Shown here piece by piece: positions 2,677 to 29,368 of a DNA stretch of 32,000 nucleotides. The stretch's first letter is position 1. The number at the start of each line of letters is the position of its first letter. Under the pieces are notes generated by a model. That model was given only the letters and a program-made list of their open reading frames with translations, made no database searches and was not told the origin of the DNA. Location: the NCBI GenBank assembly GCA_965228485.1, contig OZ245819.1:1170001-1202000 (forward strand), given 5' to 3'. The position numbers and the translations under genes were made by a program. The stretch comes from Candidatus Saccharimonadota bacterium (lineage in GTDB: Bacteria > Patescibacteriota > Gracilibacteria > UBA4473).

Positions 2677-3015
2677 TTACTGGAAAATTTTGAGTATTGA
2701 ATAAAAGGTTTTTTCCAGAAGGCTGAGTTCTTTCGAAGGTTCGTTGGTAGTTTCTATCGGAGTTGGGGTTTTCTTGGTCATGACAGGGTCAACTTTTTCC
2801 CAGAAATCATTTTGAGCCTTTATGATAGCAGCTTTTTTTTCTTTTGGGGCTAGCTTTTTTGCCTCCTTGATGGCTTCCTTTCTCTCTTCGATTGAATTTT
2901 GTATTGTTTCTACTTTGGCTTGTTTTTCTAGGGTGTTGGCTTTTGGCGCCATTTGTCTCGCCTGGGCAAAGTTTGAAATTATGAGGAGTGTCAGGATTAA
3001 AACCGATTTATACAT
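2677..3015 (-). CDS. Small secreted Lys/Glu-rich hypothetical protein
   Basis: 112 aa with an N-terminal signal-like segment MYKSVLILTLLIISNFAQA followed by charged low-complexity sequence. It lies directly upstream of fda on the same strand. No family recognised. Confidence 0.5.
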   Translation of the reverse strand: MYKSVLILTLLIISNFAQARQMAPKANTLEKQAKVETIQNSIEERKEAIKEAKKLAPKEKKAAIIKAQNDFWEKVDPVMTKKTPTPIETTNEPSKELSLLEKTFYSILKIFQ

Positions 3016-3109
3016 ATTGAAAATGATTTTTATTCTTAGGCAATAATACCAATTGTGATCGTTTAGCCAAACGATTTAGGGACAACGAGTGTGACATGGA
3101 AAAAATTTC

Positions 3110-11024: not shown

Positions 11025-12880
<1,856 letters not shown>

Positions 12881-12944
12881 TGATATTAGATTATGGAATA
12901 AAGATTTAGTTTTCAATTCATTTTAACGATACAATGTTGTCTGA

Positions 12945-14270
12945 ATGACACGGGTAACTTATTTTTTGATCGGACTATTTGCTTTCTTGCTTCCTTTGCA
13001 TGGTGGTATTTCGGTTTTTTTCCCTGAAAATTTTCGCTGGTGGAAAGAAATTTTGTTAATGGTATTAGCGGTTCTTTTTGTATTGAATCTCTGTTTAAAT
13101 CGTCATTTTTGGCATCATTTTAGAAGCCAGGTATTTCCATTTAACAAATCTTTTTTATTGATGCCTTGGTTTTGGAGTTTGATGTTTCTTGTTTGGGGAG
13201 TTTTGTTGGTAGTTTTTTCCCAAGATTTACACACTAGTGCTGTGGCTTTTAGGTACTTAGGATTTGGTTTTTTTGCCTTTGTGTTGTGGTTTTTTTGGTG
13301 TAAAACTTTGATGAAATCTGCAAAAAATGAGGAAAGTTTTGGAGATGTTTTTTTGCACATTTTTTGCACATTTTTCGTTTTTGGAGTTACGGTTTCTGTT
13401 TTATTTGGGGGTTGGGCTCAGTTTTGTGGGGGGTTTGAAATTGTTAGTAAATTTTATGCCTCGACTATTTCTAGTTGGGTTCCTGGTCAAACATTGCCTT
13501 TGTATCATGAGGCAGGTGGACAGATTCGTATGCAGGGACTTTCTTCTGGTCCAATTGAGTTGGCACATTTGTGTCTTCTAGGATTAGTATGTTTGATGGG
13601 GTTGCGACAAAAATGGCCGAAATGGAGTCTTTTGTGTTTTGGCGGTGTTTTTCTTTTTGGGATATATTTCACGGCTTCAAGAGCGGTTGAATTAGTCCTT
13701 TTATTGGTAGTTTTATTTTTGGCGTTGAAGCCATTTTTATTTAAATATCTGAGTATTGAATCTTTGCTTTTTATTTTGTTGGGATTGAGTCTTTTTCTGG
13801 GGACAGCAAAGTGGATTTTAACCACAGAATGGGCGGAGAATAATACATGGTTAAATCAAGAAGTGGGAGCTAGAGGGGGGACTATGGATCATTTTACTAG
13901 ACCTGTTGAAGCGGTGAAATCGGGTATTAAAACTCCAATGTTTGGTCAAGTCGGTCAGTGGGGACCTGCAGCTCGTGCTAAAAATCTGGCGGTTAATAAT
14001 GATGATAAAGCTCCAATTGCAGAAAATGTATTTGCCGATTGGTTTGTTCAGTTGGGGATTTTAGGTCTTTTGTTGGGGATAAGTTTTCTTGTGGCCTTAT
14101 GTCGACAGTTTTGGATTGATCAAAGTTTTATTGGAATAGGGCTTATTTCGATGTTTATTATACCTTTGAACTTGGCAACGATTTTTGACATGAGTCCAAT
14201 TAGTTTGAGCTTTTTTACTTTCTTAGCTTTACTTATGGTAAGGTCTGATGAGATTTTGTTGGTAAAATAG
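12945..14270 (+). CDS. O-antigen ligase/polymerase-like (Wzy_C-type) polytopic membrane protein
   Basis: 441 aa with more than 10 TM spans and one large loop. The segment FTASRAVELVLLLVVLFL is typical of the Wzy_C family. It lies next to mraY. Confidence 0.55.
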   Translation: MTRVTYFLIGLFAFLLPLHGGISVFFPENFRWWKEILLMVLAVLFVLNLCLNRHFWHHFRSQVFPFNKSFLLMPWFWSLMFLVWGVLLVVFSQDLHTSAVAFRYLGFGFFAFVLWFFWCKTLMKSAKNEESFGDVFLHIFCTFFVFGVTVSVLFGGWAQFCGGFEIVSKFYASTISSWVPGQTLPLYHEAGGQIRMQGLSSGPIELAHLCLLGLVCLMGLRQKWPKWSLLCFGGVFLFGIYFTASRAVELVLLLVVLFLALKPFLFKYLSIESLLFILLGLSLFLGTAKWILTTEWAENNTWLNQEVGARGGTMDHFTRPVEAVKSGIKTPMFGQVGQWGPAARAKNLAVNNDDKAPIAENVFADWFVQLGILGLLLGISFLVALCRQFWIDQSFIGIGLISMFIIPLNLATIFDMSPISLSFFTFLALLMVRSDEILLVK

Positions 14271-14311
14271 TTGATTATTCGTTGGTTGCTCGCTAAAAGT
14301 ATCTAGAAATT

Positions 14312-15376
14312 ATGGAATCAATTCACGTTGCCAATCTTGCTCAAATTGCTCTGTATGCACTCTTTGCATTTGTTCTTGCTATGGGGGCTTTCCCTCCGTT
14401 TATTCAGTTTGTACAGAACTATAAGCTGACTCAGAAAATCCGAGAAGAAGGTCTGTCTGGAGGGGTGGCAAAGTTGTTTAATAAACTTCACGCTCACAAA
14501 GCTGGTACGCCGACTATGGGAGGGGCGGTTATCATTGGATCAGTTGTGATTACGGTGATTTTTTCTCGTATATTGGCTTATTTTGGTTTAGTAGAGCATT
14601 CATTGCTTAATCGGGGAGAAACTTATTTGCCCATTATTACTTTGATCTTTGTAGGGGTTCTAGGACTTCTTGATGATTATCTAAATATCACTGAAAAATC
14701 AGCTCAGAAAGGTTTATCAGCTCGAGTAAAAATGTGGACACTCTTGGGCTTTGCTTTTGCTGGAGCTATGTGGTTTGTGTTTAAATTGGAATGGTCACTA
14801 ATTCATGTGCCAGGGATTGGAGATTTTGATATTGGTTTGCTCTATTTTCCTTTGTTTATGTTTATTGTGGTAGGGGTTTCCAACTCGGTAAATTTAACCG
14901 ATGGTTTGGATGGACTTGCGGGAGGGCTTTTGGCGATTGCTTATTCCGTATTCGCAGTTATTGCTTATTTTTATGGACTGCCTATTTTGGCTACATTTTG
15001 TGTGGTTGTCGCGGCTAGTATTTTTGCCTTTCTTTGGTTTAATGTCCCCCCCGCCTCTATCTATATGGGAGATACGGGGAGTTTGGCATTGGGGGCGACT
15101 TTAGGAGTTATTGCGATGCTTTGTGATGCCGTAATCGTCTTGGCGGTAGTAGGTTTGATTTTTGTACTGGAAACTATTTCAGTCATGTTGCAGCTTTTCT
15201 GGAAAAAACGTTTTAAGAAAAAATTATTTCTCATTGCTCCATTACATCATCACTTTGAAGCCAAGGGATGGTCTGAGACTCAGATTGTTATGAGATTTTG
15301 GTTGATGGGGGGAGTTTTTGGCATTATGGGACTTTTAATCGGTCTTATTGGTATGGGAGAAGGATTTGGTCTTTAG
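14312..15376 (+). CDS. mraY: Phospho-N-acetylmuramoyl-pentapeptide transferase
   Basis: 354 aa. Motifs seen: KAGTPTMGG, NSVNLTDGLDGLAGG, MGDTGSLALG and APLHHHFE. Confidence 0.95.
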   Translation: MESIHVANLAQIALYALFAFVLAMGAFPPFIQFVQNYKLTQKIREEGLSGGVAKLFNKLHAHKAGTPTMGGAVIIGSVVITVIFSRILAYFGLVEHSLLNRGETYLPIITLIFVGVLGLLDDYLNITEKSAQKGLSARVKMWTLLGFAFAGAMWFVFKLEWSLIHVPGIGDFDIGLLYFPLFMFIVVGVSNSVNLTDGLDGLAGGLLAIAYSVFAVIAYFYGLPILATFCVVVAASIFAFLWFNVPPASIYMGDTGSLALGATLGVIAMLCDAVIVLAVVGLIFVLETISVMLQLFWKKRFKKKLFLIAPLHHHFEAKGWSETQIVMRFWLMGGVFGIMGLLIGLIGMGEGFGL

Positions 15377-15424
15377 AAATTGATTTTAAGGATTATTTTT
15401 TTAGACTCTTTTCAGTTTTTTTGT

Positions 15425-15514
15425 GGAGAGGTGACAGAGTGGTCGAATGTGCTCGCCTGGAACGCGGGTGTGGGGGCAACTCCACCGTGGGTTCGAATCC
15501 CATCCTCTCCGCCA
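15425..15514 (+). tRNA. tRNA-Ser (anticodon GGA), class II with long variable arm, CCA encoded
   Basis: Acceptor is GGAGAGG/CCTCTCC. Anticodon stem CTCGC/GCGGG carries loop CTGGAAC (GGA). The long variable arm is TGTGGGGGCAACTCCACC. The T loop is TTCGAAT, with discriminator G plus CCA. Confidence 0.95.
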
Positions 15515-15633
15515 GAAAAACAGACCATAAGGCATTAAATTAATCTCGGCATACAGAAGATTGATCCCTCTCTCATGGAGATAAATTGAGTCAGTAACCC
15601 AATACTTATCTACCTAAACTTTAAAAAGAAAAA

Positions 15634-16467
15634 CTATTTAATAGTTTGCCCTGGCAAAATAAGATCAAGAACTCCGTGCCCCATCCATTTTTTAATAAAT
15701 TTGGCTACTTTCCCATCTAGGTTTGGCGTGTACCTTCTTTTAGGCGCACTACTTTGAGCTGCATGCAGTACCGCCTTGGCTATTGTGTCTGGGGACGCTC
15801 CGTTATCAACTCCTTTACTCCAGTGGGCTCGAAAATTTTTCATCTGCGTTTTATAAGGCGCGGAATTCGGATGTTTTTCACATTTATCAAGGTAGGGCAA
15901 ACTGGCGTTATCAATATCCGTATCGATATACCCCGGCTCTATAAGCGATACCCTAATACCAAAGGCTTTCACCTCCATTCGAAGTGCATCTCCAAGCGCT
16001 TGTTGTGCATGTTTAGTGGCTGGGTACCAAGCCATACCGGGCAACGAAACATGACCAGCACTTGAAGAACAGATAATAACTCGACCAAATTGTTGGGCTC
16101 TCATATGTGGTAAAACCGCGGTAAGCACTCTAGCATTCCCCAACACATTCACATCAAACTGGTAGCGCACATCTTCAATATCTTGCAGCTCTACTGGTCC
16201 CAAAAGACAAAATCCCGCATTGGCAAATAACGCATCAATACGCCCTTCTTTTTCAATGATCGTATCCACCACTTTTTGCACGGCCTCATCATCGGTTACA
16301 TCACAGTGCATAGCGATGGCTCCAAGAGCTTCTAAATCTTTCATTAGTTCGACACGACGAGCCACCCCATAGACTTTAAATCCATTTTCCTGCAGCATTT
16401 TTGCCGAAGCGTGTCCGATTCCAGTTGAGGCACCAGTAACCAGTGCAATTTTTTGAGAATTTTTCAT
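15634..16467 (-). CDS. Short-chain dehydrogenase/reductase (classical SDR)
   Basis: 277 aa. It has the cofactor motif TGASTGIG, NAG, and the catalytic S...YPATK (YxxxK). Confidence 0.9.
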   Translation of the reverse strand: MKNSQKIALVTGASTGIGHASAKMLQENGFKVYGVARRVELMKDLEALGAIAMHCDVTDDEAVQKVVDTIIEKEGRIDALFANAGFCLLGPVELQDIEDVRYQFDVNVLGNARVLTAVLPHMRAQQFGRVIICSSSAGHVSLPGMAWYPATKHAQQALGDALRMEVKAFGIRVSLIEPGYIDTDIDNASLPYLDKCEKHPNSAPYKTQMKNFRAHWSKGVDNGASPDTIAKAVLHAAQSSAPKRRYTPNLDGKVAKFIKKWMGHGVLDLILPGQTIK

Positions 16468-16477
16468 GAAATTTTAA

Positions 16478-16506
16478 ATGAGTACTTACTCACTTTCTAA
16501 ATTATA
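16478..16506 (-). promoter_or_regulatory. Operator-like motif plus -10 box upstream of the SDR gene
   Basis: On the plus strand, ATGAGTACTTACTCACTTT (16478-16496) differs from 3571-3589 only in the 3 central bases. On the minus strand, TATAAT (16501-16506) precedes it. The downstream leader TTTAAAATTT..ATG is shared with the hydrolase operon. Confidence 0.5.
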
Positions 16507-16833
16507 ACTTGGAAGTCAAATTAATTTTTTAACGCGCTAATGAACTCTCAATTCATTTAAAGCTCTAAAGTTTTTTCCAAATTTTTGATTTTTTAGAAAT
16601 GGTTCTGAGTGAGCATTAACCCGTGTTTTTAGAAAAATATTTTTTCATTGAAAATTTTTTTTGTCAATTAATTTTTTAGTTTTTAGTTTTTTACTTAAAG
16701 GATATCTTCACTTTTTTTTATCGTCTTTTTCTGAGCACAAAAATAGTTCTTAATCTTGACTTAATGTTCACATAGTAGAACTTTAAATAATTTTATGTTC
16801 CAATAAACAGGTACAAAAATGTGATTTTTTAAA

Positions 16834-19800
16834 ATGAATCAAAAATTCCCTCATCGGTTGTTGGTTTCACTGTGTGTCGTATCTTTCGTATTTTTTAATA
16901 ACGCCTCCCTTGCTCTGGCTGCCCCTGGGGGAGTGCAGACTGATCTGGGGTTGTGGCTCAAGGCTAATGCCGGCGTCTTCTCTGATGCGGGGACAACCGC
17001 CGCCATCGATGGAGTGGGTATTCAGGAGTGGCAGGATCAATCCAGTGCCGGTATTGACGCAACAGAAGCAACCAATAGTAATCAGAGACCGACTTTTCAG
17101 AGCGATGCAGCTAACCTGGTAAATTTTAATCCCTCCGTTCTCTTTGATGGGTCAAATGACAGATTTTTGCTGGATAGCAATAGTATAGCCCTGGGAAACA
17201 CGAGCTATTCGTTTCGCGCGGTCAGTACGGTAGGAACCAATAGCAATGGAAACGCCATTCTCGGTAGCGCCGGTACCGGTACTCGAAAAAGTACATTATT
17301 AGAGCTTAACGCGGGGAGTCCTCCGCAGGTGTTTTCTTTCTGGCAGGCTACTAATTTGAGCGCGGATGCCACCAATGTTGACAACGATGATATTGTGATT
17401 GTAGGAGATAATTATGACAATACGGTCGGGCGAACGGTTTTTTCCAATGGTCTGCAAATAGGCTCAAACGCAAATACTAGTCATAGTGCGACAGATGGGC
17501 TCATAAAAGTAGGAGAGTTTTCTACTACTGGGAGTACCGCTGACCGGTTTACTGGGCGAATGATGGAAGTTATCGCGTATTCGAATACTAAAAGTTCAAC
17601 CGAACTTAATAGGATAGATGCTTATCTGGCGCTCAAATACGGAATCACTCTTGATCAAGCGGTCGCCACCGCCTACTTAGCCAGTGATGGTAGTACCAAG
17701 ATGTGGGACGAGACGGTCAATGCTACCTATAACAACGATATCTTTGGTATTGGGCGTGATGACGGATCGAACCTAGATCAAAGGGTATCAAAATCTCTAA
17801 ATGATGATGCCATCCTGACGGTAGCATTAGATAATGACTTTACCAGTGCCAATAATGACGCCAGTCGTACTACAGCCTTTGGTAGTGATTTAAGTTTTCT
17901 GATGTTTGCCAACAATAATGGGGCGGCCACCTTTGCGATAGCCGGTACTAACCAAGTACTTGACCGCGTGTGGCAAGTTCAAGAAGAAGGGACGGTAGGC
18001 TCCGTGCAACTACAGTTTGACATGGATGACGCGGACTTTGACATAGCAACGCTAGACAGATACGAGCTACTGGTTGATACCGATAACGATGCAGACTTTA
18101 GTGACGAAACCCCTGTCAGCATGACTAATACTACGGGAAGTCTCTGGAGCACTTCCTTTGATTTCACTGATGGACAGCTGTTCACGGTAGCCCTTGGAAA
18201 CGCCGCTCCAACTGACATCGCCCTTGATGGAGGTAACAGCGATACGATTATTGAAAATACCGTGGCCAACACGGATATTGGTACGCTCACCACAACAGAC
18301 TCTGATGTTGCAGACACCCATGCTTACAGTTTGGCCTGTAGTGTGGCTGGGGCTGACGACAGCCATTTCGCCATTGTTGGAGATAAACTGCAAAATACGA
18401 CTGTCTTTGATTATGAAACGCCCGTAGACGCTAACACGGACAATAGCTATGAAGTCTGTGTTCGTGTCACTGATTCAGGAGTGGGCAATGCGACCTATGA
18501 TGAAATTCTGACGGTGGCGGTTCAGGATATTGTCGACGAAACGCCACCCGTGATCAGTGAAACCACTCCGGTCGATACCCCTACGAATGATAGCACCCCA
18601 AGCTACACTTTCACTACCGACGAAGCCGGGACTATCACCTATGGAGGTAGCTGTAGTAGTGCCACTACGGCGGCCGTATTCGGACCAAACACCGTTGACT
18701 TTAATACCTTAGCGGAAGGCCCCTACACCGATTGTACAATCACGGTTACTGATGCCGCTAGTAATGTGTCTAATCAAATTACCGTTAGTAGCTTTACGAT
18801 TGATACAACGGCGCCAACGACGACCCCACCAAGTCCAGGAGTAACGACGCCGAGCTCAGGACCGGTGAATGCAATTGTGACCATTCCTGCTGGTAGTTGT
18901 GGAGCGGATTACGCGAACGGAACGGCGATATGGAATACGAATCCAGCGGGACAAATTAATCCTCACCCAACGACGGTGAGTTTGGATGCGAGTGGAGACT
19001 ACCCACAAACGGTACTGGATACTTCTGGTTCTACTGGGACCTTTGATCTCACCTTAACTTGTACAGACCAAGCCGGAAACCCAGGGCCGACGTTAGATCC
19101 AGCGGTGGGGGGCTTTACGGCGGACCATGTGGCGCCAGTAATAGGGATAGATTCGCCGCTGATGGGAGATGATATTTTTAATGCGACAGAAGCCGGAACG
19201 GTGACGATAAGTGGTTCCACTGATGCAGAAAACGGTCAAACCGTTTCCGTTTCCGTCGGCACCGTTAGTGGCAACACGACTGCCTCTTCTGGAACCTGGT
19301 CACTCGTCTTAGACCTCTCTGGCGAAGCCAACGGGTCTTTGGCCATAACCGCAGACGTCAGCGACATCGCTGGTAATGCGGCTACACAAGCAACGGCTTC
19401 TATTACTAAAGATGCGGCCACTCCTACTACAACACCACCTACTCCTGGAGTAACAACGCCTACGGCAGGGCCGGTGGGTGCCACGGTGACGATACCGGCG
19501 GGAAGTTGTGGAGCGGATTACGCGAACGGAACGGCGATATGGAATACGAATCCAGCGGGACAAATTAATCCTCACCCAACGACGGTGAGTTTGGATGCGA
19601 GTGGAGACTACCCACAAACGGTACTGGATACTTCTGGTTCTACTGGGACCTTTGATCTCACCTTAACTTGTACAGACCAAGCCGGAAACCCAGGGCCGAC
19701 GTTAGATCCAGCGGTGGGGGGCTTTACGGCGGACCATGTGGCGCCAGTAATAGGGATAGATTCGCCGCTGATGGGAGATGATATTTTTAATGCGACAGAA

Positions 19801-22800
19801 GCCGGAACGGTGACGATAAGTGGTTCCACTGATGCAGAAAACGGTCAAACCGTTTCCGTTTCCGTCGGCACCGTTAGTGGCAACACGACTGCCTCTTCTG
19901 GAACCTGGTCACTCGTCTTAGACCTCTCTGGCGAAGCCAACGGGTCTTTGGCCATAACCGCAGACGTCAGCGACATCGCTGGTAATGCGGCTACACAAGC
20001 AACGGCTTCTATTACTAAAGATGCGGCCACTCCTACTACAACACCACCTACTCCTGGAGTAACAACGCCTACGGCAGGGCCGGTGGGTGCCACGGTGACG
20101 ATACCGGCGGGAAGTTGTGGAGCGGATTACGCGAACGGAACGGCGATATGGAATACGAATCCAGCGGGACAAATTAATCCTCACCCAACGACGGTGAGTT
20201 TGGATGCGAGTGGAGACTACCCACAAACGGTACTGGATACTTCTGGTTCTACTGGGACCTTTGATCTCACCTTAACTTGTACAGACCAAGCCGGAAACCC
20301 AGGGCCGACGTTAGATCCAGCGGTGGGGGGCTTTACGGCGGACCATGTGGCGCCAGTAATAGGGATAGATTCGCCGCTGATGGGAGATGATATTTTTAAT
20401 GCGACAGAAGCCGGAACGGTGACGATAAGTGGTTCCACTGATGCAGAAAACGGTCAAACCGTTTCCGTTTCCGTCGGCACCGTTAGTGGCAACACGACTG
20501 CCTCTTCTGGAACCTGGTCACTCGTCTTAGACCTCTCTGGCGAAGCCAACGGGTCTTTGGCCATAACCGCAGACGTCAGCGACATCGCTGGTAATGCGGC
20601 TACACAAGCAACGGCTTCTATTACTAAAGATGCGGCCACTCCTACTACAACACCACCTACTCCTGGAGTAACAACGCCTACGGCAGGGCCGGTGGGTGCC
20701 ACGGTGACGATACCGGCGGGAAGTTGTGGAGCGGATTACGCGAACGGAACGGCGATATGGAATACGAATCCAGCGGGACAAATTAATCCTCACCCAACGA
20801 CGGTGAGTTTGGATGCGAGTGGAGACTACCCACAAACGGTACTGGATACTTCTGGTTCTACTGGGACCTTTGATCTCACCTTAACTTGTACAGACCAAGC
20901 CGGAAACCCAGGGCCGACGTTAGATCCAGCGGTGGGGGGCTTTACGGCGGACCATGTGGCGCCAGTAATAGGGATAGATTCGCCGCTGATGGGAGATGAT
21001 ATTTTTAATGCGACAGAAGCCGGAACGGTGACGATAAGTGGTTCCACTGATGCAGAAAACGGTCAAACCGTTTCCGTTTCCGTCGGCACCGTTAGTGGCA
21101 ACACGACTGCCTCTTCTGGAACCTGGTCACTCGTCTTAGACCTCTCTGGCGAAGCCAACGGGTCTTTGGCCATAACCGCAGACGTCAGCGACATCGCTGG
21201 TAATGCGGCTACACAAGCAACGGCTTCTATTACTAAAGATGCGGCCACTCCTACTACAACACCACCTACTCCTGGAGTAACAACGCCTACGGCAGGGCCG
21301 GTGGGTGCCACGGTGACGATACCGGCGGGAAGTTGTGGAGCGGATTACGCGAACGGAACGGCGATATGGAATACGAATCCAGCGGGACAAATTAATCCTC
21401 ACCCAACGACGGTGAGTTTGGATGCGAGTGGAGACTACCCACAAACGGTACTGGATACTTCTGGTTCTACTGGGACCTTTGATCTCACCTTAACTTGTAC
21501 AGACCAAGCCGGAAACCCAGGGCCGACGTTAGATCCAGCGGTGGGGGGCTTTACGGCGGACCATGTGGCGCCAGTAATAGGGATAGATTCGCCGCTGATG
21601 GGAGATGATATTTTTAATGCGACAGAAGCCGGAACGGTGACGATAAGTGGTTCCACTGATGCAGAAAACGGTCAAACCGTTTCCGTTTCCGTCGGCACCG
21701 TTAGTGGCAACACGACTGCCTCTTCTGGAACCTGGTCACTCGTCTTAGACCTCTCTGGCGAAGCCAACGGGTCTTTGGCCATAACCGCAGACGTCAGCGA
21801 CATCGCTGGTAATGCGGCTACACAAGCAACGGCTTCTATTACTAAAGATGCGGCCACTCCTACTACAACACCACCTACTCCTGGAGTAACAACGCCTACG
21901 GCAGGGCCGGTGGGTGCCACGGTGACGATACCGGCGGGAAGTTGTGGAGCGGATTACGCGAACGGAACGGCGATATGGAATACGAATCCAGCGGGACAAA
22001 TTAATCCTCACCCAACGACGGTGAGTTTGGATGCGAGTGGAGACTACCCACAAACGGTACTGGATACTTCTGGTTCTACTGGGACCTTTGATCTCACCTT
22101 AACTTGTACAGACCAAGCCGGAAACCCAGGGCCGACGTTAGATCCAGCGGTGGGGGGCTTTACGGCGGACCATGTGGCGCCAGTAATAGGGATAGATTCG
22201 CCGCTGATGGGAGATGATATTTTTAATGCGACAGAAGCCGGAACGGTGACGATAAGTGGTTCCACTGATGCAGAAAACGGTCAAACCGTTTCCGTTTCCG
22301 TCGGCACCGTTAGTGGCAACACGACTGCCTCTTCTGGAACCTGGTCACTCGTCTTAGACCTCTCTGGCGAAGCCAACGGGTCTTTGGCCATAACCGCAGA
22401 CGTCAGCGACATCGCTGGTAATGCGGCTACACAAGCAACGGCTTCTATTACTAAAGATGCGGCCACTCCTACTACAACACCACCTACTCCTGGAGTAACA
22501 ACGCCTACGGCAGGGCCGGTGGGTGCCACGGTGACGATACCGGCGGGAAGTTGTGGAGCGGATTACGCGAACGGAACGGCGATATGGAATACGAATCCAG
22601 CGGGACAAATTAATCCTCACCCAACGACGGTGAGTTTGGATGCGAGTGGAGACTACCCACAAACGGTACTGGATACTTCTGGTTCTACTGGGACCTTTGA
22701 TCTCACCTTAACTTGTACAGACCAAGCCGGAAACCCAGGGCCGACGTTAGATCCAGCGGTGGGGGGCTTTACGGCGGACCATGTGGCGCCAGTAATAGGG

Positions 22801-25800
22801 ATAGATTCGCCGCTGATGGGAGATGATATTTTTAATGCGACAGAAGCCGGAACGGTGACGATAAGTGGTTCCACTGATGCAGAAAACGGTCAAACCGTTT
22901 CCGTTTCCGTCGGCACCGTTAGTGGCAACACGACTGCCTCTTCTGGAACCTGGTCACTCGTCTTAGACCTCTCTGGCGAAGCCAACGGGTCTTTGGCCAT
23001 AACCGCAGACGTCAGCGACATCGCTGGTAATGCGGCTACACAAGCAACGGCTTCTATTACTAAAGATGCGGCCACTCCTACTACAACACCACCTACTCCT
23101 GGAGTAACAACGCCTACGGCAGGGCCGGTGGGTGCCACGGTGACGATACCGGCGGGAAGTTGTGGAGCGGATTACGCGAACGGAACGGCGATATGGAATA
23201 CGAATCCAGCGGGACAAATTAATCCTCACCCAACGACGGTGAGTTTGGATGCGAGTGGAGACTACCCACAAACGGTACTGGATACTTCTGGTTCTACTGG
23301 GACCTTTGATCTCACCTTAACTTGTACAGACCAAGCCGGAAACCCAGGGCCGACGTTAGATCCAGCGGTGGGGGGCTTTACGGCGGACCATGTGGCGCCA
23401 GTAATAGGGATAGATTCGCCGCTGATGGGAGATGATATTTTTAATGCGACAGAAGCCGGAACGGTGACGATAAGTGGTTCCACTGATGCAGAAAACGGTC
23501 AAACCGTTTCCGTTTCCGTCGGCACCGTTAGTGGCAACACGACTGCCTCTTCTGGAACCTGGTCACTCGTCTTAGACCTCTCTGGCGAAGCCAACGGGTC
23601 TTTGGCCATAACCGCAGACGTCAGCGACATCGCTGGTAATGCGGCTACACAAGCAACGGCTTCTATTACTAAAGATGCGGCCACTCCTACTACAACACCA
23701 CCTACTCCTGGAGTAACAACGCCTACGGCAGGGCCGGTGGGTGCCACGGTGACGATACCGGCGGGAAGTTGTGGAGCGGATTACGCGAACGGAACGGCGA
23801 TATGGAATACGAATCCAGCGGGACAAATTAATCCTCACCCAACGACGGTGAGTTTGGATGCGAGTGGAGACTACCCACAAACGGTACTGGATACTTCTGG
23901 TTCTACTGGGACCTTTGATCTCACCTTAACTTGTACAGACCAAGCCGGAAACCCAGGGCCGACGTTAGATCCAGCGGTGGGGGGCTTTACGGCGGACCAT
24001 GTGGCGCCAGTAATAGGGATAGATTCGCCGCTGATGGGAGATGATATTTTTAATGCGACAGAAGCCGGAACGGTGACGATAAGTGGTTCCACTGATGCAG
24101 AAAACGGTCAAACCGTTTCCGTTTCCGTCGGCACCGTTAGTGGCAACACGACTGCCTCTTCTGGAACCTGGTCACTCGTCTTAGACCTCTCTGGCGAAGC
24201 CAACGGGTCTTTGGCCATAACCGCAGACGTCAGCGACATCGCTGGTAATGCGGCTACACAAGCAACGGCTTCTATTACTAAAGATGCGGCCACTCCTACT
24301 ACAACACCACCTACTCCTGGAGTAACAACGCCTACGGCAGGGCCGGTGGGTGCCACGGTGACGATACCGGCGGGAAGTTGTGGAGCGGATTACGCGAACG
24401 GAACGGCGATATGGAATACGAATCCAGCGGGACAAATTAATCCTCACCCAACGACGGTGAGTTTGGATGCGAGTGGAGACTACCCACAAACGGTACTGGA
24501 TACTTCTGGTTCTACTGGGACCTTTGATCTCACCTTAACTTGTACAGACCAAGCCGGAAACCCAGGGCCGACGTTAGATCCAGCGGTGGGGGGCTTTACG
24601 GCGGACCATGTGGCGCCAGTAATAGGGATAGATTCGCCGCTGATGGGAGATGATATTTTTAATGCGACAGAAGCCGGAACGGTGACGATAAGTGGTTCCA
24701 CTGATGCAGAAAACGGTCAAACCGTTTCCGTTTCCGTCGGCACCGTTAGTGGCAACACGACTGCCTCTTCTGGAACCTGGTCACTCGTCTTAGACCTCTC
24801 TGGCGAAGCCAACGGGTCTTTGGCCATAACCGCAGACGTCAGCGACATCGCTGGTAATGCGGCTACACAAGCAACGGCTTCTATTACTAAAGATGCGGCC
24901 ACTCCTACTACAACACCACCTACTCCTGGAGTAACAACGCCTACGGCAGGGCCGGTGGGTGCCACGGTGACGATACCGGCGGGAAGTTGTGGAGCGGATT
25001 ACGCGAACGGAACGGCGATATGGAATACGAATCCAGCGGGACAAATTAATCCTCACCCAACGACGGTGAGTTTGGATGCGAGTGGAGACTACCCACAAAC
25101 GGTACTGGATACTTCTGGTTCTACTGGGACCTTTGATCTCACCTTAACTTGTACAGACCAAGCCGGAAACCCAGGGCCGACGTTAGATCCAGCGGTGGGG
25201 GGCTTTACGGCGGACTTAAGCAAACCGACTCCCCCAGTAGTGTATCCTATCACTACGACTACGGACCCGATCACGGGAACCAGCGAACCAGGTTCGATTA
25301 TTACGGTTTCGCCGCTAACTTGTGATAACACTCCCGTAGTGACTGATACTTCAGGGAATTGGAGTTGTGATGTGACGACTTCTTCTCCACTCACTGCTTT
25401 AACAACGATAGATGTGACCGCCACTGATTCAGCCGGGAATGTCAGTGATCCAACAATGACCACTGTAGTTGACCACACTACAACGACCGTACCACCAACC
25501 GTCGACCCTACTGATGGAGACCCCGTAACCGGTACCGGAGAACCGGGGGCCCTGATTACCGTTAAAGACAACTTGGGAAATATTCTCTGTCAAACATCCG
25601 TTTTCCCAAACGGCACTTTCATCTGTAGTCCGGTCAGTCCAGCTCCAAGTCCTGGAGATACCCTTGAGGTGACTCAAAATATAGCTCCGAACGGCGAATC
25701 AGCGCCAACAGAATTGATGGTTATCGATCCAACAGCGGTTGTGTTACCGCCTACCATCAGTCCAACCGACGGAGATGTAATAACCGGAACGGCAGAGCCA

Positions 25801-27438
25801 AATGCTACGGTGCGAATTATTGATCCAACTTCGGGATTAACGTTGTGTACGGCTACGGCGGATGGATCCGGGAACTTTAGCTGTGATCTGAGCCCAGACC
25901 TTACTGATGGACAAACCGTCAACGTCACCGCCACCGTAGATGGAACCTCTTCATTGCCAACTACTATTACGGTTGATAGTAGTGATTCTGATGGAGACGG
26001 AATAGATAACACTGATGAGACAGGGGCCATTAATGGCGGAGATGGAAATGGTGATGGGACGCCTGATGATGAACAAACATCAGTCACCTCTGTCACGAAC
26101 CCCGTTACCAGCCAACCAGTCACTATGTCAGTCACGGGTGGAAACTGTCGTGTGATTGATGGTTATGATGTCGAGTTTGAAAGTACTCAAACAGCTCAAG
26201 ACAGTGCCTTTGATTACCCGATCGGGTTGTTTGATTTTGAACTCTATTGTACTAACGTCGGACAGAGTACGGACGTAACGTTCTATCTAGATAAAGAGTA
26301 TGATACCACGGGATGGGTCTGGAGAAAGATCAATCGGAGCGCGGGAGTTTATAGCACTTTTAATGAAACAGTTACCTATGGAACCGCTACTATAGGCACT
26401 GATACGGTGACAACCGTAAATATTGTAGTAGCGGACAATAATAGCGATGATGAAGATTCTACAGCTAATGCTCGTATTCTTGATCCCTCTGGACCGGCTT
26501 TGCCAGCACCTACTAGTTCCGGCTCCGGAGGTGGCGGAGGCAGTGCTCCGATTCGTCATATAATTACTATGTGTAGCTATGACACAGGGAAGTGTGAAAA
26601 TATTTTCCCTACGGGAAATGATGAAACTTATAAAACGTACCGAGACTGTTACCAATCTGGTAGTAAATCCGGGACAGAGTGTGCCACTGAGTGGGCGTTG
26701 GCCAAAAATTATGTAGCGGTAGAAGACTTCGTACCGACCACGGTTCAACCGGCTCAAACCGGTTCTCAAGCCGAAGAGATTTCGACTTCTGGCCTAGAGG
26801 AATCAAAATCAGTTATTAGTGACGATGGCCGCTGTGAGACCATCACCTACCGACGTTATCCAGGTCGACGAGGCTCTGGAGCTTCTGCTGGCTTATTTGG
26901 CGACACGCTTGAGACGCATGCGGCTTACCCTTATTTGGTAGACCTAAACGAACAAAACATTGTAAATGGTGACGCAGAGACGGGGAATGCTCGGTTGGAT
27001 AGTGAAATTAGTCGGGCGGAGGTGATGAAAATTATGACGATAGCCCGTCAAGATTCACTAAAACAAGGCGAATGCGCTGAGTTAACAACTTTTCCAGATG
27101 TTAACACTGGAGCTTGGTATCACCACTTTGTCCAAAATATGGAACAGCAAGATATAGTGCACGGTTATAATGATGGTCTCTACCGACCAGGTAAAAATAT
27201 TATTAAAGCCGAAATTTATAAAATTCTGGCCCTCTCGTTTGGCTACATTACCTATGATGAAGCGAAACAAATAGCGGCTGAACGTGGCATTGAATGGTAT
27301 GTGCCTTATATTGAGGCCTTGGAAAATAATGTTGCTCTACCAAGCGCAATCAGGGCAGCTGAGCCCGGCGAGGGAATGACGAGGGGAGAGATGTTTACCA
27401 TGCTCTCGTTGGTGCTCCAAAAGGTTGACGAACTTTAG
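16834..27438 (+). CDS. Giant (3534 aa) secreted, SLH-anchored repetitive adhesin-like surface protein
   Basis: A single uninterrupted ORF. The signal peptide ends ...ASLALA/AP. A LamG/ConA-like region spans about aa 35-280 (IQEWQDQSSAG...NQRPTF...FDGSNDRF...YLALKYGITLDQ). A cadherin-like module is NAAPTDIALDG...TDSDVADTHAYSL...FDYE...VQDIVDE. The stalk has 10.4 copies of a 203-aa two-module Ig-like repeat. Three further Ig-like modules follow (P.V.PTDGD.ITGT.EP). Next comes a TSP3-like Asp-rich stretch, DSDGDGIDNTDE...GDGNGDGTPDDE. The C-terminal SLH-type repeats read FPDVNTGAWYHHFVQNMEQQDIVHGYNDGLYRPGKNIIKAEIYKIL. Confidence 0.85.
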   Translation: MNQKFPHRLLVSLCVVSFVFFNNASLALAAPGGVQTDLGLWLKANAGVFSDAGTTAAIDGVGIQEWQDQSSAGIDATEATNSNQRPTFQSDAANLVNFNPSVLFDGSNDRFLLDSNSIALGNTSYSFRAVSTVGTNSNGNAILGSAGTGTRKSTLLELNAGSPPQVFSFWQATNLSADATNVDNDDIVIVGDNYDNTVGRTVFSNGLQIGSNANTSHSATDGLIKVGEFSTTGSTADRFTGRMMEVIAYSNTKSSTELNRIDAYLALKYGITLDQAVATAYLASDGSTKMWDETVNATYNNDIFGIGRDDGSNLDQRVSKSLNDDAILTVALDNDFTSANNDASRTTAFGSDLSFLMFANNNGAATFAIAGTNQVLDRVWQVQEEGTVGSVQLQFDMDDADFDIATLDRYELLVDTDNDADFSDETPVSMTNTTGSLWSTSFDFTDGQLFTVALGNAAPTDIALDGGNSDTIIENTVANTDIGTLTTTDSDVADTHAYSLACSVAGADDSHFAIVGDKLQNTTVFDYETPVDANTDNSYEVCVRVTDSGVGNATYDEILTVAVQDIVDETPPVISETTPVDTPTNDSTPSYTFTTDEAGTITYGGSCSSATTAAVFGPNTVDFNTLAEGPYTDCTITVTDAASNVSNQITVSSFTIDTTAPTTTPPSPGVTTPSSGPVNAIVTIPAGSCGADYANGTAIWNTNPAGQINPHPTTVSLDASGDYPQTVLDTSGSTGTFDLTLTCTDQAGNPGPTLDPAVGGFTADHVAPVIGIDSPLMGDDIFNATEAGTVTISGSTDAENGQTVSVSVGTVSGNTTASSGTWSLVLDLSGEANGSLAITADVSDIAGNAATQATASITKDAATPTTTPPTPGVTTPTAGPVGATVTIPAGSCGADYANGTAIWNTNPAGQINPHPTTVSLDASGDYPQTVLDTSGSTGTFDLTLTCTDQAGNPGPTLDPAVGGFTADHVAPVIGIDSPLMGDDIFNATEAGTVTISGSTDAENGQTVSVSVGTVSGNTTASSGTWSLVLDLSGEANGSLAITADVSDIAGNAATQATASITKDAATPTTTPPTPGVTTPTAGPVGATVTIPAGSCGADYANGTAIWNTNPAGQINPHPTTVSLDASGDYPQTVLDTSGSTGTFDLTLTCTDQAGNPGPTLDPAVGGFTADHVAPVIGIDSPLMGDDIFNATEAGTVTISGSTDAENGQTVSVSVGTVSGNTTASSGTWSLVLDLSGEANGSLAITADVSDIAGNAATQATASITKDAATPTTTPPTPGVTTPTAGPVGATVTIPAGSCGADYANGTAIWNTNPAGQINPHPTTVSLDASGDYPQTVLDTSGSTGTFDLTLTCTDQAGNPGPTLDPAVGGFTADHVAPVIGIDSPLMGDDIFNATEAGTVTISGSTDAENGQTVSVSVGTVSGNTTASSGTWSLVLDLSGEANGSLAITADVSDIAGNAATQATASITKDAATPTTTPPTPGVTTPTAGPVGATVTIPAGSCGADYANGTAIWNTNPAGQINPHPTTVSLDASGDYPQTVLDTSGSTGTFDLTLTCTDQAGNPGPTLDPAVGGFTADHVAPVIGIDSPLMGDDIFNATEAGTVTISGSTDAENGQTVSVSVGTVSGNTTASSGTWSLVLDLSGEANGSLAITADVSDIAGNAATQATASITKDAATPTTTPPTPGVTTPTAGPVGATVTIPAGSCGADYANGTAIWNTNPAGQINPHPTTVSLDASGDYPQTVLDTSGSTGTFDLTLTCTDQAGNPGPTLDPAVGGFTADHVAPVIGIDSPLMGDDIFNATEAGTVTISGSTDAENGQTVSVSVGTVSGNTTASSGTWSLVLDLSGEANGSLAITADVSDIAGNAATQATASITKDAATPTTTPPTPGVTTPTAGPVGATVTIPAGSCGADYANGTAIWNTNPAGQINPHPTTVSLDASGDYPQTVLDTSGSTGTFDLTLTCTDQAGNPGPTLDPAVGGFTADHVAPVIGIDSPLMGDDIFNATEAGTVTISGSTDAENGQTVSVSVGTVSGNTTASSGTWSLVLDLSGEANGSLAITADVSDIAGNAATQATASITKDAATPTTTPPTPGVTTPTAGPVGATVTIPAGSCGADYANGTAIWNTNPAGQINPHPTTVSLDASGDYPQTVLDTSGSTGTFDLTLTCTDQAGNPGPTLDPAVGGFTADHVAPVIGIDSPLMGDDIFNATEAGTVTISGSTDAENGQTVSVSVGTVSGNTTASSGTWSLVLDLSGEANGSLAITADVSDIAGNAATQATASITKDAATPTTTPPTPGVTTPTAGPVGATVTIPAGSCGADYANGTAIWNTNPAGQINPHPTTVSLDASGDYPQTVLDTSGSTGTFDLTLTCTDQAGNPGPTLDPAVGGFTADHVAPVIGIDSPLMGDDIFNATEAGTVTISGSTDAENGQTVSVSVGTVSGNTTASSGTWSLVLDLSGEANGSLAITADVSDIAGNAATQATASITKDAATPTTTPPTPGVTTPTAGPVGATVTIPAGSCGADYANGTAIWNTNPAGQINPHPTTVSLDASGDYPQTVLDTSGSTGTFDLTLTCTDQAGNPGPTLDPAVGGFTADHVAPVIGIDSPLMGDDIFNATEAGTVTISGSTDAENGQTVSVSVGTVSGNTTASSGTWSLVLDLSGEANGSLAITADVSDIAGNAATQATASITKDAATPTTTPPTPGVTTPTAGPVGATVTIPAGSCGADYANGTAIWNTNPAGQINPHPTTVSLDASGDYPQTVLDTSGSTGTFDLTLTCTDQAGNPGPTLDPAVGGFTADLSKPTPPVVYPITTTTDPITGTSEPGSIITVSPLTCDNTPVVTDTSGNWSCDVTTSSPLTALTTIDVTATDSAGNVSDPTMTTVVDHTTTTVPPTVDPTDGDPVTGTGEPGALITVKDNLGNILCQTSVFPNGTFICSPVSPAPSPGDTLEVTQNIAPNGESAPTELMVIDPTAVVLPPTISPTDGDVITGTAEPNATVRIIDPTSGLTLCTATADGSGNFSCDLSPDLTDGQTVNVTATVDGTSSLPTTITVDSSDSDGDGIDNTDETGAINGGDGNGDGTPDDEQTSVTSVTNPVTSQPVTMSVTGGNCRVIDGYDVEFESTQTAQDSAFDYPIGLFDFELYCTNVGQSTDVTFYLDKEYDTTGWVWRKINRSAGVYSTFNETVTYGTATIGTDTVTTVNIVVADNNSDDEDSTANARILDPSGPALPAPTSSGSGGGGGSAPIRHIITMCSYDTGKCENIFPTGNDETYKTYRDCYQSGSKSGTECATEWALAKNYVAVEDFVPTTVQPAQTGSQAEEISTSGLEESKSVISDDGRCETITYRRYPGRRGSGASAGLFGDTLETHAAYPYLVDLNEQNIVNGDAETGNARLDSEISRAEVMKIMTIARQDSLKQGECAELTTFPDVNTGAWYHHFVQNMEQQDIVHGYNDGLYRPGKNIIKAEIYKILALSFGYITYDEAKQIAAERGIEWYVPYIEALENNVALPSAIRAAEPGEGMTRGEMFTMLSLVLQKVDEL
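18895..25215 (+). repeat. Tandem array of 609-bp (203-codon) in-frame repeats, 10 full units plus 231 bp, apparently 100% identical
   Basis: The identity run begins at agttgtggagcgg (18895, next copy 19504) and ends at ggctttacggcggac (25215, first copy 19125). The forward translation and antisense shadow ORFs in two further frames recur with identical sequence at exact +609 steps. Confidence 0.9.
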
Positions 27439-27607
27439 GGTTTTTGACCTAGCTAAGTTTGTCTTCCTCCTTTTCATGCCTATATTCCTGCTGAGACTTC
27501 GTCAGAGACTCTGATTGTGTAATGAAGCGACAAACCACGAAAAATATCTTTTTTAACGTGGTTTATGGCGGCCTCAATTATGTATTATTCATTAAATATT
27601 ACCCTGA

Positions 27608-28025
27608 ATGGTCACCACCAAAAAAACATTTAACTTTCCCGCTAAACTGAAACCGGCCAAAGAAGACAACGGTCGTTGTTTCTTCACAGCTGAAGTCGAA
27701 TCGGATTTTCTTTGTGCCAAATGCTTTAGTGTCGGGGGTGTACGGCACTAAAATGATTCCCAAACGAGTGGTTTGGCTCGAATTTGAGACCGATAGGGGT
27801 GATCTCGTCTGGGTGAAGTTTGCGCTGAAACAAAGAGACATTAAGAGGCTTTCTTAATTCAGTCCTACGAAGGAAAAAAACTTTGATAAGTCATGAAATT
27901 TGAAACTGAAACAAGAATGGTTAGATTTATTAAATATGAAGGATTTTTGAATAGAAACGTATTTGATCCTCAGTTAGCCCCTAGATTGTCTGGAGAAACT
28001 TTCTTGCCCCCTTTCACACGAAATT
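27608..28025 (+). pseudogene. rpoB: Decayed, internally deleted relic of an rpoB 5' region
   Basis: The ATG at 27608 gives MVTTKKTFNFPAKLKPAKEDNGRCFFTAEVESDF, against real RpoB MPKVTKKLNLPAKLKPMKTENGRCFYTSEVGDNF (19/34 identical). After a +1 shift, IFFVPNALVSGVYGTKMIPKRVVWLEFETDRGDLVWVKF aligns with RpoB IFFAPNTALPGAVTGKMIPKRGAWLEIESDKRGLIWVKV. Further weak matches (SYEGKK / GYESNKE; FLNRNVFD / FLDSMFFD) are interrupted by stops. Confidence 0.65.
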
Positions 28026-28199
28026 AATCTAAAAGCCTTTCATTATTACATGGGAGCAGATGTGACTTGTGAGTTGACATATGAAGCAAACCCTAATCGC
28101 TCGGAGGAAAATGCCCGCCACAAATTAAAATCATTTATCTTTTCTTTACTCGTAATGGAGGATTTGTAATAATCAAACTAGCTTTAAATTTTACACGAA

Positions 28200-28781
28200 A
28201 TGAAACAAAAATTATTACTACTTTCGTTGGCTTTGTTACTTCCAAGTTTGGCTCTGGCTCACAGCGGAGAGGGGGTGATGGGAGGTTTTGTTAGTGGTTT
28301 TAAACACCCGATCATGGGATGGGACCATCTGGTAGCTATGGTGGCAGTTGGTCTCTGGGGAGCTATTTTACTCCGCCCTGCTATTTGGGTATTGCCTATT
28401 ACATTTCCAATGGTGATGGCGCTTGGAGCAGTTTTAGGTATATTAGGTCTCCCGGTGCCGTTTATAGAGCCTGGAATTGCTTTGTCAGGATTGGTTCTTG
28501 GTCTAGTTATCTTATTGGCTTGGAAGGCTCCTTTGTGGGCGGCTATGGCTTTGGTTTCGATTTTTGCAATTTTTCATGGACATGCTCATGGTACGGAACT
28601 TCCAGAAGCGGCTAATCCATTAACTTATGCTGTAGGTTTTGTATTGGGAACAGGATTGCTGCATTTAGCGGGTATTGGGCTTGGATTTTTGGACAAATTA
28701 CCAAAAGGAATCTATTTGATTCGAGGTTTTGGGGGGATAATTGCTGTTTGTGGTTTGGCTTTTTTAATGGGATGGTTGTAA
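28200..28781 (+). CDS. hupE: HupE/UreJ family metal (Ni/Co) transport protein
   Basis: 193 aa. The signal peptide ends in ALA/HSGEG, leaving His at the mature N-terminus. Motifs GFKHPIMGWDHLVAMVAVGLW and FHGHAHGTE are family hallmarks. Confidence 0.85.
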   Translation: MKQKLLLLSLALLLPSLALAHSGEGVMGGFVSGFKHPIMGWDHLVAMVAVGLWGAILLRPAIWVLPITFPMVMALGAVLGILGLPVPFIEPGIALSGLVLGLVILLAWKAPLWAAMALVSIFAIFHGHAHGTELPEAANPLTYAVGFVLGTGLLHLAGIGLGFLDKLPKGIYLIRGFGGIIAVCGLAFLMGWL

Positions 28782-29368
28782 GTAATTTGAGAAAAATACT
28801 TTTTTATTTATGTGCCTTATGTTTGCAACCGCTGAACATAGCACAAGCACATAACTTTTTTGGTGATACTCAGCCTTTACTTAATGGGATAGCTCATCCA
28901 TTTCTGACGATTTCTCATTTATTGTTAATCATCTCATTGGGACTTGTTTTGTTTTCTCAGAAAAAACCAGAACAGTTTCTTGGTGTTTTTTTGATAACAT
29001 TATTAGGAGGTTTTTTGGGGCAATGGTTTTTATCTGGAGTGCCATTTGAGCTTGGGTTTAGTTTGTTGTTGATTCTTTGGGGAGTGGTGGTGGCGCTACA
29101 CTATTTAATGTCTTTTCGTATACTAATTCTACCGCTAGCTGTGTCGGGCTTGATTATTGGTTTAGATACTGTCTCAGAGAGTCAGGATGTCATTATGAAT
29201 TTAGTCTTCTATTTGGGCTCAATTTTTGGAGTCGTTGCTTTTTTTAGTTATGTGTTGATTCTTAAAGATTTCATAAAGCAAGAATGGCACTGGGTAATCA
29301 TAAGAACTTTGGGAGGATGGATGTTTGCGGTGGGATTGATGATGTTGGCATTTTATTTTAGTGTCTAA
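28772..29368 (+). CDS. Divergent HupE/UreJ-like membrane protein (second tandem paralog)
   Basis: The signal peptide ends AQA/HNFF. GIAHPFLTISHLLLIISLGL parallels the HP..G.DH motif, but the HGxAHG motif is absent. The ATG at 28772 is preferred over the track TTG at 28748 and overlaps hupE by 10 nt. Confidence 0.6.
   Translation: MVVSNLRKILFYLCALCLQPLNIAQAHNFFGDTQPLLNGIAHPFLTISHLLLIISLGLVLFSQKKPEQFLGVFLITLLGGFLGQWFLSGVPFELGFSLLLILWGVVVALHYLMSFRILILPLAVSGLIIGLDTVSESQDVIMNLVFYLGSIFGVVAFFSYVLILKDFIKQEWHWVIIRTLGGWMFAVGLMMLAFYFSV

Follow-up and report, generated by a model that had tools for sequence, protein, structure and literature searches.

The 32,000-nucleotide stretch analysed here (hereafter the window; contig OZ245819.1, positions 1,170,001 to 1,202,000 of the forward strand, deposited as a Candidatus Saccharimonadota bacterium) contains a giant, predicted surface-protein gene, more than half of which consists of identical 609-base-pair (bp) tandem repeats. 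We consider it likely that this array is real and that it encodes the recombination-homogenised, variable-length stalk of a giant secreted surface adhesin of the Periscope/MpIBP type, belonging to a Candidatus Altimarinota-like bacterium. Three observations carry this reading: the repeat is exact, domains on both sides of it and within it can be identified, and a relative has a different copy number with independent homogenisation.

The giant gene is located at window positions 16834..27438 on the plus strand, as are all parts of it described below. The open reading frame (ORF) list, the translation and the composition describe a protein of 3,534 amino acids (aa; ~355 kDa, pI ~4), with a TAG stop codon and no in-frame TGA. 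The array, defined by offset comparison, blastn and translation, spans 18895..25215, comprises 10 identical 609-bp units plus a terminal 231-nucleotide (nt) module, and accounts for 59.6% of the gene. Comparing each base with that 609 nt further on yielded a single uninterrupted run of matches over 18895..24606 (5,712 nt). This corresponds to exact 609-nt periodicity over 6,321 nt (10 x 609 + 231) with zero mismatches, and 5,712 consecutive matches are beyond chance. A blastn search of unit 1 against the window retrieved one copy of 231 nt and 10 of full length, with 100% identity and no gaps throughout. The period equals 203 codons and is in frame with the ORF, the array beginning at codon 688. 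Directly outside the array, identity at the 609-nt offset is ~30-36%, with the exception of a diverged edge copy at 18795-18894. A preliminary description of this DNA, made from the letters and a list of ORFs, had reported the 609-bp in-frame period and the identical run of 6321 bp (10 units plus 231 bp) after spot checks, and the full offset comparison found both to be exact. The exhaustive alignment of units that it had proposed as a check revealed no substitution between units. Tandem Repeats Finder (TRF) was run with a maximum period of 500 and missed the 609-bp array. The only array that it reported is a short perfect tandem repeat, TTTTTTGCACA x2.5, at window positions 13349-13375 within a Wzy-like gene.

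Each unit consists of a module A core, a module B, an 18-aa Pro/Thr-rich linker and, in its final 30 nt, the first strand of the A that follows. In unit 1, the translation places the module A core (77 aa, with two Cys) at 18895..19125, module B (98 aa) at 19126..19419 and the linker TPTTTPPTPGVTTPTAGP at 19420..19473. Module A, module B and linker are repeated ten times in the protein and are followed by a final A (24985..25215), which blastn found to be identical to the array's A. Asp+Glu make up 9.4% of the unit, which is acidic and has one Lys and no Arg. Module B was matched by Pfam Big_13 (2.6e-9) and by NCBIfam NF033510 Ca_tandemer (53.6 bits against a curated cut-off of 50, E 2.1e-14), and shares sequence similarity with the RII tetra-tandemer structure of MpAFP (4p99, E 2.8e-5). 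Based on these matches, module B is classified as a member of the Ca_tandemer family, an Ig-like Ca2+-tandemer / Big_13 domain. Module A had no Pfam match even at E 10 and no NCBIfam match. Among 269 retrieved proteins it was present in three only (P0001, P0156 and P0084), and it is a rare, lineage-restricted two-Cys beta module. An AlphaFold2 (AF2) model of linker-A-B-linker-A, built from a 4-sequence alignment, shows all-beta modules and disordered linkers (pLDDT 67.7 overall and <50 in the linker; pTM 0.36). The top Foldseek matches of this model were 4p99, 5irb, SiiE and the Bap C region; by protein, its best matches are the tandem Ig arrays of MpIBP, SiiE, Bap and the GhpA grappling hook. 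Two modules per unit, with two Cys in A and an adhesin-type Ig-like fold in B, had been proposed earlier; the translation matches the first point, and Big_13, Ca_tandemer above its cut-off and 4p99, by both sequence and fold, support the second.

Further domains were predicted on the two sides of the array. The protein begins with a predicted Sec signal peptide (MNQKFPHRLLVSLCVVSFVFFNNASLALA|AP; 16834..16920), read by eye from the translation. It is followed by a DUF8202 domain (16921..18228), supported by homologues, an AF2 model and Foldseek. A total of 732 homologues were found at E <= 1e-5 among 8,000 candidates scored, matching the N-terminal ~430 aa, typically with 30-40% identity over ~25% of the query, and they are giant proteins mostly of Bacteroidota. 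Among the best 120 of these 732 homologues, nearly all carry a precomputed PF26628 annotation. The PF26628 model is absent from the local Pfam copy, and the DUF8202 assignment was made through the annotation of these homologues. The AF2 model of the domain (13-sequence alignment; pLDDT 80.6, pTM 0.88) matched the tetanus/botulinum Hc receptor-binding domains, a cyanophage tailspike and a trans-sialidase lectin domain in Foldseek, suggesting a lectin-like tip. A sequence search of the PDB with the N-terminal domain gave no match, and the fold search alone was informative. A weak cadherin-like domain lies at 18247..18522 (Pfam Cadherin, E 3.3e-5, 24.6 bits, under the cut-off of 28.8). Downstream of the array are three diverged Big_6 Ig domains (25216..25989; Pfam Big_6 3e-35, three stretches), a choice-of-anchor U domain (26203..26502; NCBIfam NF041766, 41.6 bits against a cut-off of 32) and an S-layer homology (SLH) motif (27088..27213; Pfam SLH 33.7-35.3 bits against a cut-off of 20.8), which is the predicted cell-wall anchor. 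Two SLH-like segments flanking this motif were recognised by eye in the C-terminal sequence, the one motif alone being above threshold. Pfam and NCBIfam scans of the C-terminal 770 aa found no HemolysinCabind or other RTX match. An RTX adhesin was ruled out, with no RTX repeats detected and SLH and choice-of-anchor U found instead. A Rib domain was also searched for, and Pfam scans of the giant protein gave no match.

The closest relative of the giant gene encodes a protein of 2,715 aa (P0001) on a 1.326-Mb chromosome (L001) deposited as a Candidatus Altimarinota metagenome-assembled genome, within the Patescibacteria group. The genome scan yielded this chromosome and two distant DUF8202 fragments only, and a scan of JGI metagenomes with six 8-mer peptide patterns found no relative. 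Exact look-ups of the giant protein and of two neighbouring proteins in the assembly collection gave no entry. The L001 array (12062-15629, first unit 12062-12670) has the same phase and contains 5 units + 523 nt (5.9), compared to 10 + 231 nt (10.4) in the window. Its copies are 99.3-100% alike, with 4 variable sites and 0-4 differences per pair. The L001 and window units differ at 73 of 609 sites, sharing about 88-89% nucleotide and 94% amino acid identity, with nonsynonymous divergence (dN) of 0.034, synonymous divergence (dS) of 0.48 and dN/dS of ~0.07. Since similarity within each genome is far above that between genomes, the copies evolve together within each genome. This is the pattern of concerted evolution, with purifying selection acting on the protein. 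Each unit has ~162 synonymous sites, at which zero differences were found among the 10 window copies, indicating that the common ancestor of the array copies is far younger than the divergence of the array or of the flank (flank dS 0.05). The relative thus upholds the earlier suggestion of recent amplification or ongoing homogenisation, and a copy-number difference was found as well, between lineages and not, as had been predicted, within a population. At position 179 of the unit, the six L001 copies alternate as C,T,C,T,C,T, so that the array has a higher-order period of two units (1,218 bp), the pattern that block duplication would produce. One L001 unit carries a Val-to-Ile change.

The edges of the arrays escape homogenisation. 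Immediately upstream of the window array, alignment to the unit end identified the edge copy at 18795..18894 as an old, non-homogenised copy of the last 100 nt of the unit (linker and first strand of A). It is ~70% identical to the unit end overall and 56-80% in 25-nt windows; its linker peptide is the same as the unit's, encoded by different codons. In L001, the left edge of the homogenised tract lies 15 nt upstream of the point at which it lies in the window. At the other end, the terminal module A of the window is identical to those in the array and is joined exactly at the domain boundary, and the corresponding position in L001 holds a diverged A', with 50-52% nucleotide identity to A.

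In the proposed mechanism, the C-terminal SLH region would hold the exported protein on the wall, and the N-terminal lectin-like DUF8202 tip would be projected on 21 beta-sandwich modules, (A-B)x10 + A, with Pro/Thr linkers. These modules may form a rod rigidified by Ca2+, and the tip may mediate adhesion. Misaligned homologous recombination or replication slippage between units would lead to gain or loss of whole A-B units, and such changes keep the reading frame because the 609-bp units are identical and in frame. The same turnover would also erase differences between copies. Stalk length would then be a rapidly evolvable trait. Using ~4.5 nm per RII domain, the value for MpIBP, the stalk is estimated to be about 90-150 nm long (order of 100 nm) here; in the relative it would measure ~55-90 nm, a reduction of roughly 40%. 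Members of the Patescibacteria (candidate phyla radiation) are believed to be attached to host cells, and to our knowledge their attachment machinery is largely unknown. Given the attached lifestyle ascribed to the group, a host-attachment fibre would be the natural reading. The giant gene is a candidate Patescibacteria attachment factor, a predicted SLH-anchored fibre with a lectin-like tip and length steps of 203 residues.

Several observations weigh against the stalk reading or limit it. The copy-number difference is one between two distinct lineages (72-78% nucleotide identity in housekeeping genes), not within one population, and the assembly is the sole source of both the 10.4 count and the perfect identity in the window. 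SLH anchors usually have three SLH motifs in tandem, whereas one only is above threshold here. No CsaB was seen in the 32-kb window, where Wzy-like and GT4 genes are nearby; recA and the wall-polymer genes are not in the window. Confidence in the AF2 model of the unit is no more than moderate and its inter-domain geometry is unreliable, so that it does not establish the geometry of a rod. The 18-residue linkers also exceed those of classic rigid periscope stalks.

Alternatively, the repeats may themselves be the working part, with A or B binding a ligand such as a host-cell glycan or a Ca2+-bridged partner and copy number tuning avidity. We regard this as rather unlikely to be the main role of the array, although it could hold together with the stalk function. 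The unit protein is strongly conserved (dN/dS ~0.07, 94% amino acid against 88% nucleotide identity), which would suit a binding function, but the stability of the fold alone would also give purifying selection. Rare, lineage-restricted and carrying two Cys, module A would be a plausible binding domain, and some arrayed domains of Periscope Proteins do have ligand functions (PMC8201768). The family of module B, however, is characterised as an extender, and the protein has a separate lectin-like domain at its tip.

An assembly or polishing artefact, in which the array exists but its copy number was misjudged or copy differences were erased by consensus polishing, is unlikely. Perfect tandem arrays, here 6.3 kb in length, are a known source of assembly error (PMC6868369), the genome of the window is in none of the collections searched, and the independently assembled L001 array has a few single-nucleotide polymorphisms (SNPs) between copies where the window has none. 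However, short-read assemblers would collapse such arrays, which makes it almost certain that long reads were used, and a typical long read would cover 6.3 kb. The ends of the array are clean, in frame and at domain boundaries, and L001 indicates that a multi-copy, near-identical array is biological. The preliminary description had left open that the copy number is an assembler construct. For the existence of the array this is excluded by the similar array, with scattered copy-specific SNPs, in an independent assembly; for the exact count, and for the absolute perfection of the copies, an artefact may still hold.

It is likewise improbable that the identity reflects youth, that is, a single very recent amplification with no continuing turnover. 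Zero differences between the window copies would fit such a burst, as would the distant relative P0156 (L006 221-3919, JGI 3300039274), a protein of 1,232 aa with DUF8202, a single A1-B-A2 in which A1 and A2 are diverged, and three Big_6 domains. P0156 could represent a one-unit stalk state, or a collapsed array if its 4-kb contig is a short-read assembly. Multi-copy arrays are present in both the window and L001, in the same phase and with left boundaries that almost coincide, yet the units of the two are 12% diverged, which implies repeated sweeps or re-amplification in each lineage. The two-unit higher-order structure and scattered new variants of L001 are also those of ongoing turnover caught in a snapshot.

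The possibility that antisense ORFs are real overlapping genes constraining the sequence is negligible: the ORFs of 82 and 102 aa do recur 10 times, but this is automatic from identical DNA, and the substitutions track the sense frame, which rules them out as genes. The preliminary description had listed antisense ORFs of 73, 82 and 102 aa recurring at +609 and had argued from them that three frames are constrained. The recurrence of the 82-aa and 102-aa ORFs was found again, the 73-aa ORF being below the 80-aa cut-off of our ORF listing. It follows from the identity of the DNA and is not independent evidence. Only the sense frame is constrained, because 58 of the 73 differences between the window and L001 units are at sense third codon positions.

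The defining feature of Periscope Proteins is a set of long DNA repeats, highly identical to one another, from which variable stalks result (PMC8201768). Known members, such as SasG/Aap, Rib/alpha-C, Sgo_0707, CdrA and Esp (Whelan et al., 2021), share with the giant protein long near-identical repeats encoding folded domains and an array flanked by a functional domain on the N-terminal side and a wall anchor on the C-terminal side, the latter two being computational predictions here. Repeat number in the class varies between strains or close relatives; the counts compared here, 10 + 0.38 and 5 + 0.86 units, come from two different lineages. In SasG/Aap (G5-E) the repeating unit is also a pair of unlike modules. 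The Rib / alpha-C (Alp) family is an analogue only, with no Rib match in the giant protein. By its sequence-level features, the giant protein would belong among the Periscope Proteins. The organisms in which members are known are cultured Firmicutes, Actinobacteria and Proteobacteria, and most of these proteins are LPXTG-anchored, whereas the giant protein is from an uncultured Patescibacteria-group organism and combines a predicted SLH anchor with a DUF8202 tip.

MpIBP (MpAFP) of Marinomonas primoryensis provides the closest parallel for module B, which matches the same Ca_tandemer model and, by sequence and fold, structure 4p99. Its region II contains ~120 identical 104-aa Ca2+-dependent BIg tandemers, compared to 10 copies here, and is likewise acidic with almost no Lys or Arg. 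MpIBP projects a separate ligand-binding region from the cell, as is predicted for the giant protein. Differently from MpIBP, each unit here combines two modules, A and B, with a Pro/Thr linker of 18 aa. In addition, MpIBP is an RTX adhesin that a Gram-negative bacterium exports by type I secretion, and its binding domains are C-terminal, whereas here the SLH region is C-terminal and the tip N-terminal. In the fold search, the A-B-A model groups with the tandem Ig arrays of SiiE (Salmonella) and Bap (Staphylococcus), neither of which has the tip or anchor domains of the giant protein. The 53 BIg domains of SiiE are diverged, not identical as here; the C-repeats of Bap are nearly identical, but Bap is LPXTG-anchored. 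Giant type IX secretion system (T9SS) proteins of Bacteroidota, for example in Roseivirga and Chryseobacterium, share the N-terminal DUF8202 with 30-40% identity, but in most of them the protein ends in a T9SS sorting domain (PF18962) and has no module A, identical array or SLH.

With the giant protein, the Periscope, or identical-extender, principle would also hold for an uncultured lineage of phylum level and for an SLH-anchored protein, and its two-module repeat with an uncharacterised two-Cys domain is new. The locus could also be used as a long-read strain-typing marker; in short-read bins of these organisms the array will collapse.

A further protein with DUF8202, P0002 (L002 6642-13760, GCA_964434585.1), has 2,372 aa with three serial DUF8202 domains, a choice-of-anchor U domain and an SLH-like tail, and does not contain the A-B array. 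It has ~8 Big_6 domains, including a near-identical 771-bp duplication, and a second giant SLH protein is encoded nearby.

The giant gene is part of a cassette next to a tRNA gene. The tRNA-Ser(GGA), identified by ARAGORN at 15425..15514 on the plus strand, abuts the cassette and is identical to the L001 tRNA-Ser at 90 of 90 positions. A short-chain dehydrogenase gene (15634..16467, minus strand; Pfam adh_short 1.6e-46) is divergent from the giant gene and co-inherited with it. Its nucleotide identity to L001 is 98.1%, compared to 72-78% for housekeeping neighbours. The cassette (window 15496-27347, L001 8663-18057) is 88-99% identical between the two genomes, the near-identical block beginning at the 3' end of tRNA-Ser. 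Identity varies along it. The segment from the tRNA-Ser 3' end through the dehydrogenase and the first 2 kb of the giant gene is ~98% identical (dS 0.05-0.07), 25501-26560 is ~97% identical and the array 88%, while 25216-25500 and the 3' end of the giant gene are ~82-85% identical overall, with local 150-nt windows of 63-91%. The G+C content of the giant gene is 52%, compared to 43% for the window. The cassette next to tRNA-Ser looks like a horizontally exchanged, mosaic island. In L001, the full tRNA-Ser (2958-3047) is accompanied by two partial 3'-end copies (8520-8544 and 8662-8681), which bracket, with it, a 5.6-kb insert between tRNA and cassette containing an ABC transporter and two HSP20 genes. 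The partial copies suggest att-like remnants and tRNA-Ser as an integration hot spot. No integrase was seen.

Relative to the conserved Obg-Wzy-GT4 and PsbP-rpoB blocks, the segment from tRNA-Ser to the giant gene (window 15425-27438, L001 2958-19207) has opposite orientations in the two genomes. The strand that carries the giant gene is therefore G-rich in the window but C-rich in L001. Third-position GC skew is very strong in these genomes, at ~+0.4 to +0.65 on one strand and -0.05 to -0.5 on the other. The skew of the dehydrogenase gene (+0.28) is opposite to that of the other minus-strand genes in the window and fits the strand it occupies in L001, suggesting that the window orientation of the cassette is recent or that the cassette was imported.

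The differences between the window and L001 array units have an unusual spectrum, in a comparison that covers two genomes and in which changes are unpolarised. A total of 17 transitions and 56 transversions (77%) were counted. Purine in the window and pyrimidine in L001 was found 52 times, compared to 4 for the reverse (binomial p = 1e-11), and this bias is present at all three codon positions and in A, B and linker. Young unique flanks have 75 transitions and 11 transversions. The older unique segments of the giant gene have 123 transitions and 72 transversions, with 38 purine-to-pyrimidine differences and 34 of the reverse, and their spectrum differs from that of the array (Fisher p = 5e-9). 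Compared to the young flanks, the array is ~2x diverged by transitions and ~50x by transversions. At four-fold sites, G:C is.34 :.19 in the window unit and.09 :.37 in the L001 unit. Co-oriented local genes have.23 :.09 in the window and.14 :.32 in L001, and the N-terminal flank has.27:.27 and.28:.29, respectively. The composition of each array follows the local strand skew, and that of the unique flanks of the giant gene does not. Variants segregating within the L001 array are all transitions (4/4). The upstream edge copy, used as an outgroup, was uninformative for polarising the changes, agreeing with the window at 8 sites, with L001 at 6 and with neither at 3.

As a tentative and somewhat doubtful explanation, we propose that the cassette was placed on opposite replication strands in the two genomes, after which each array, and not its flanks, was recoded to the local skew almost wholly by one-directional purine/pyrimidine transversions, through molecular-drive amplification of strand bias. 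Two other explanations are possible. Recombination with its breakpoints at the array edges may have re-imported the flanks in recent times, or the array may derive from a third allele. Both predict transition-rich spectra, which is not what is seen, and for this reason faster strand-biased fixation in arrays is favoured. That a third lineage was the source from which the whole array was imported was also considered and does not fit, equally diverged unique segments being transition-rich and without directionality. If the recoding is true, tandem arrays under concerted evolution would be fast reporters of replication-strand context, and its confirmation in more genomes would provide a natural experiment on the interplay of concerted evolution and replication-strand mutation bias.

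Neighbouring genes in the window encode Obg, a Wzy-like protein, a GT4/MraY-like transferase, two HupE/UreJ-family proteins, a methyltransferase and a PsbP-like protein, in addition to tRNA-Ser and the short-chain dehydrogenase. Genetic code 25 is known from Gracilibacteria/Altimarinota. Its use here (UGA = Gly) was ruled out, with no in-frame TGA in real genes and two ORFs ending in TGA; the window uses the standard genetic code. Promoter and terminator scans found no convincing plus-strand promoter upstream of the giant gene and no terminator downstream of it. The ~760 bp past the giant gene (27439-28199) contain no plus-strand ORF of at least 80 aa and have no similarity to L001, the sole ORF being one of 80 aa on the minus strand (27599-27841). 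The two HupE/UreJ-family genes follow at 28200-29368. They are absent from the counterpart site in L001, where a Zip transporter gene comes after the giant gene. In the window the two genes are adjacent and overlap by 34 nt, and the second is much more diverged (E 2.8e-12 compared to 5e-59).

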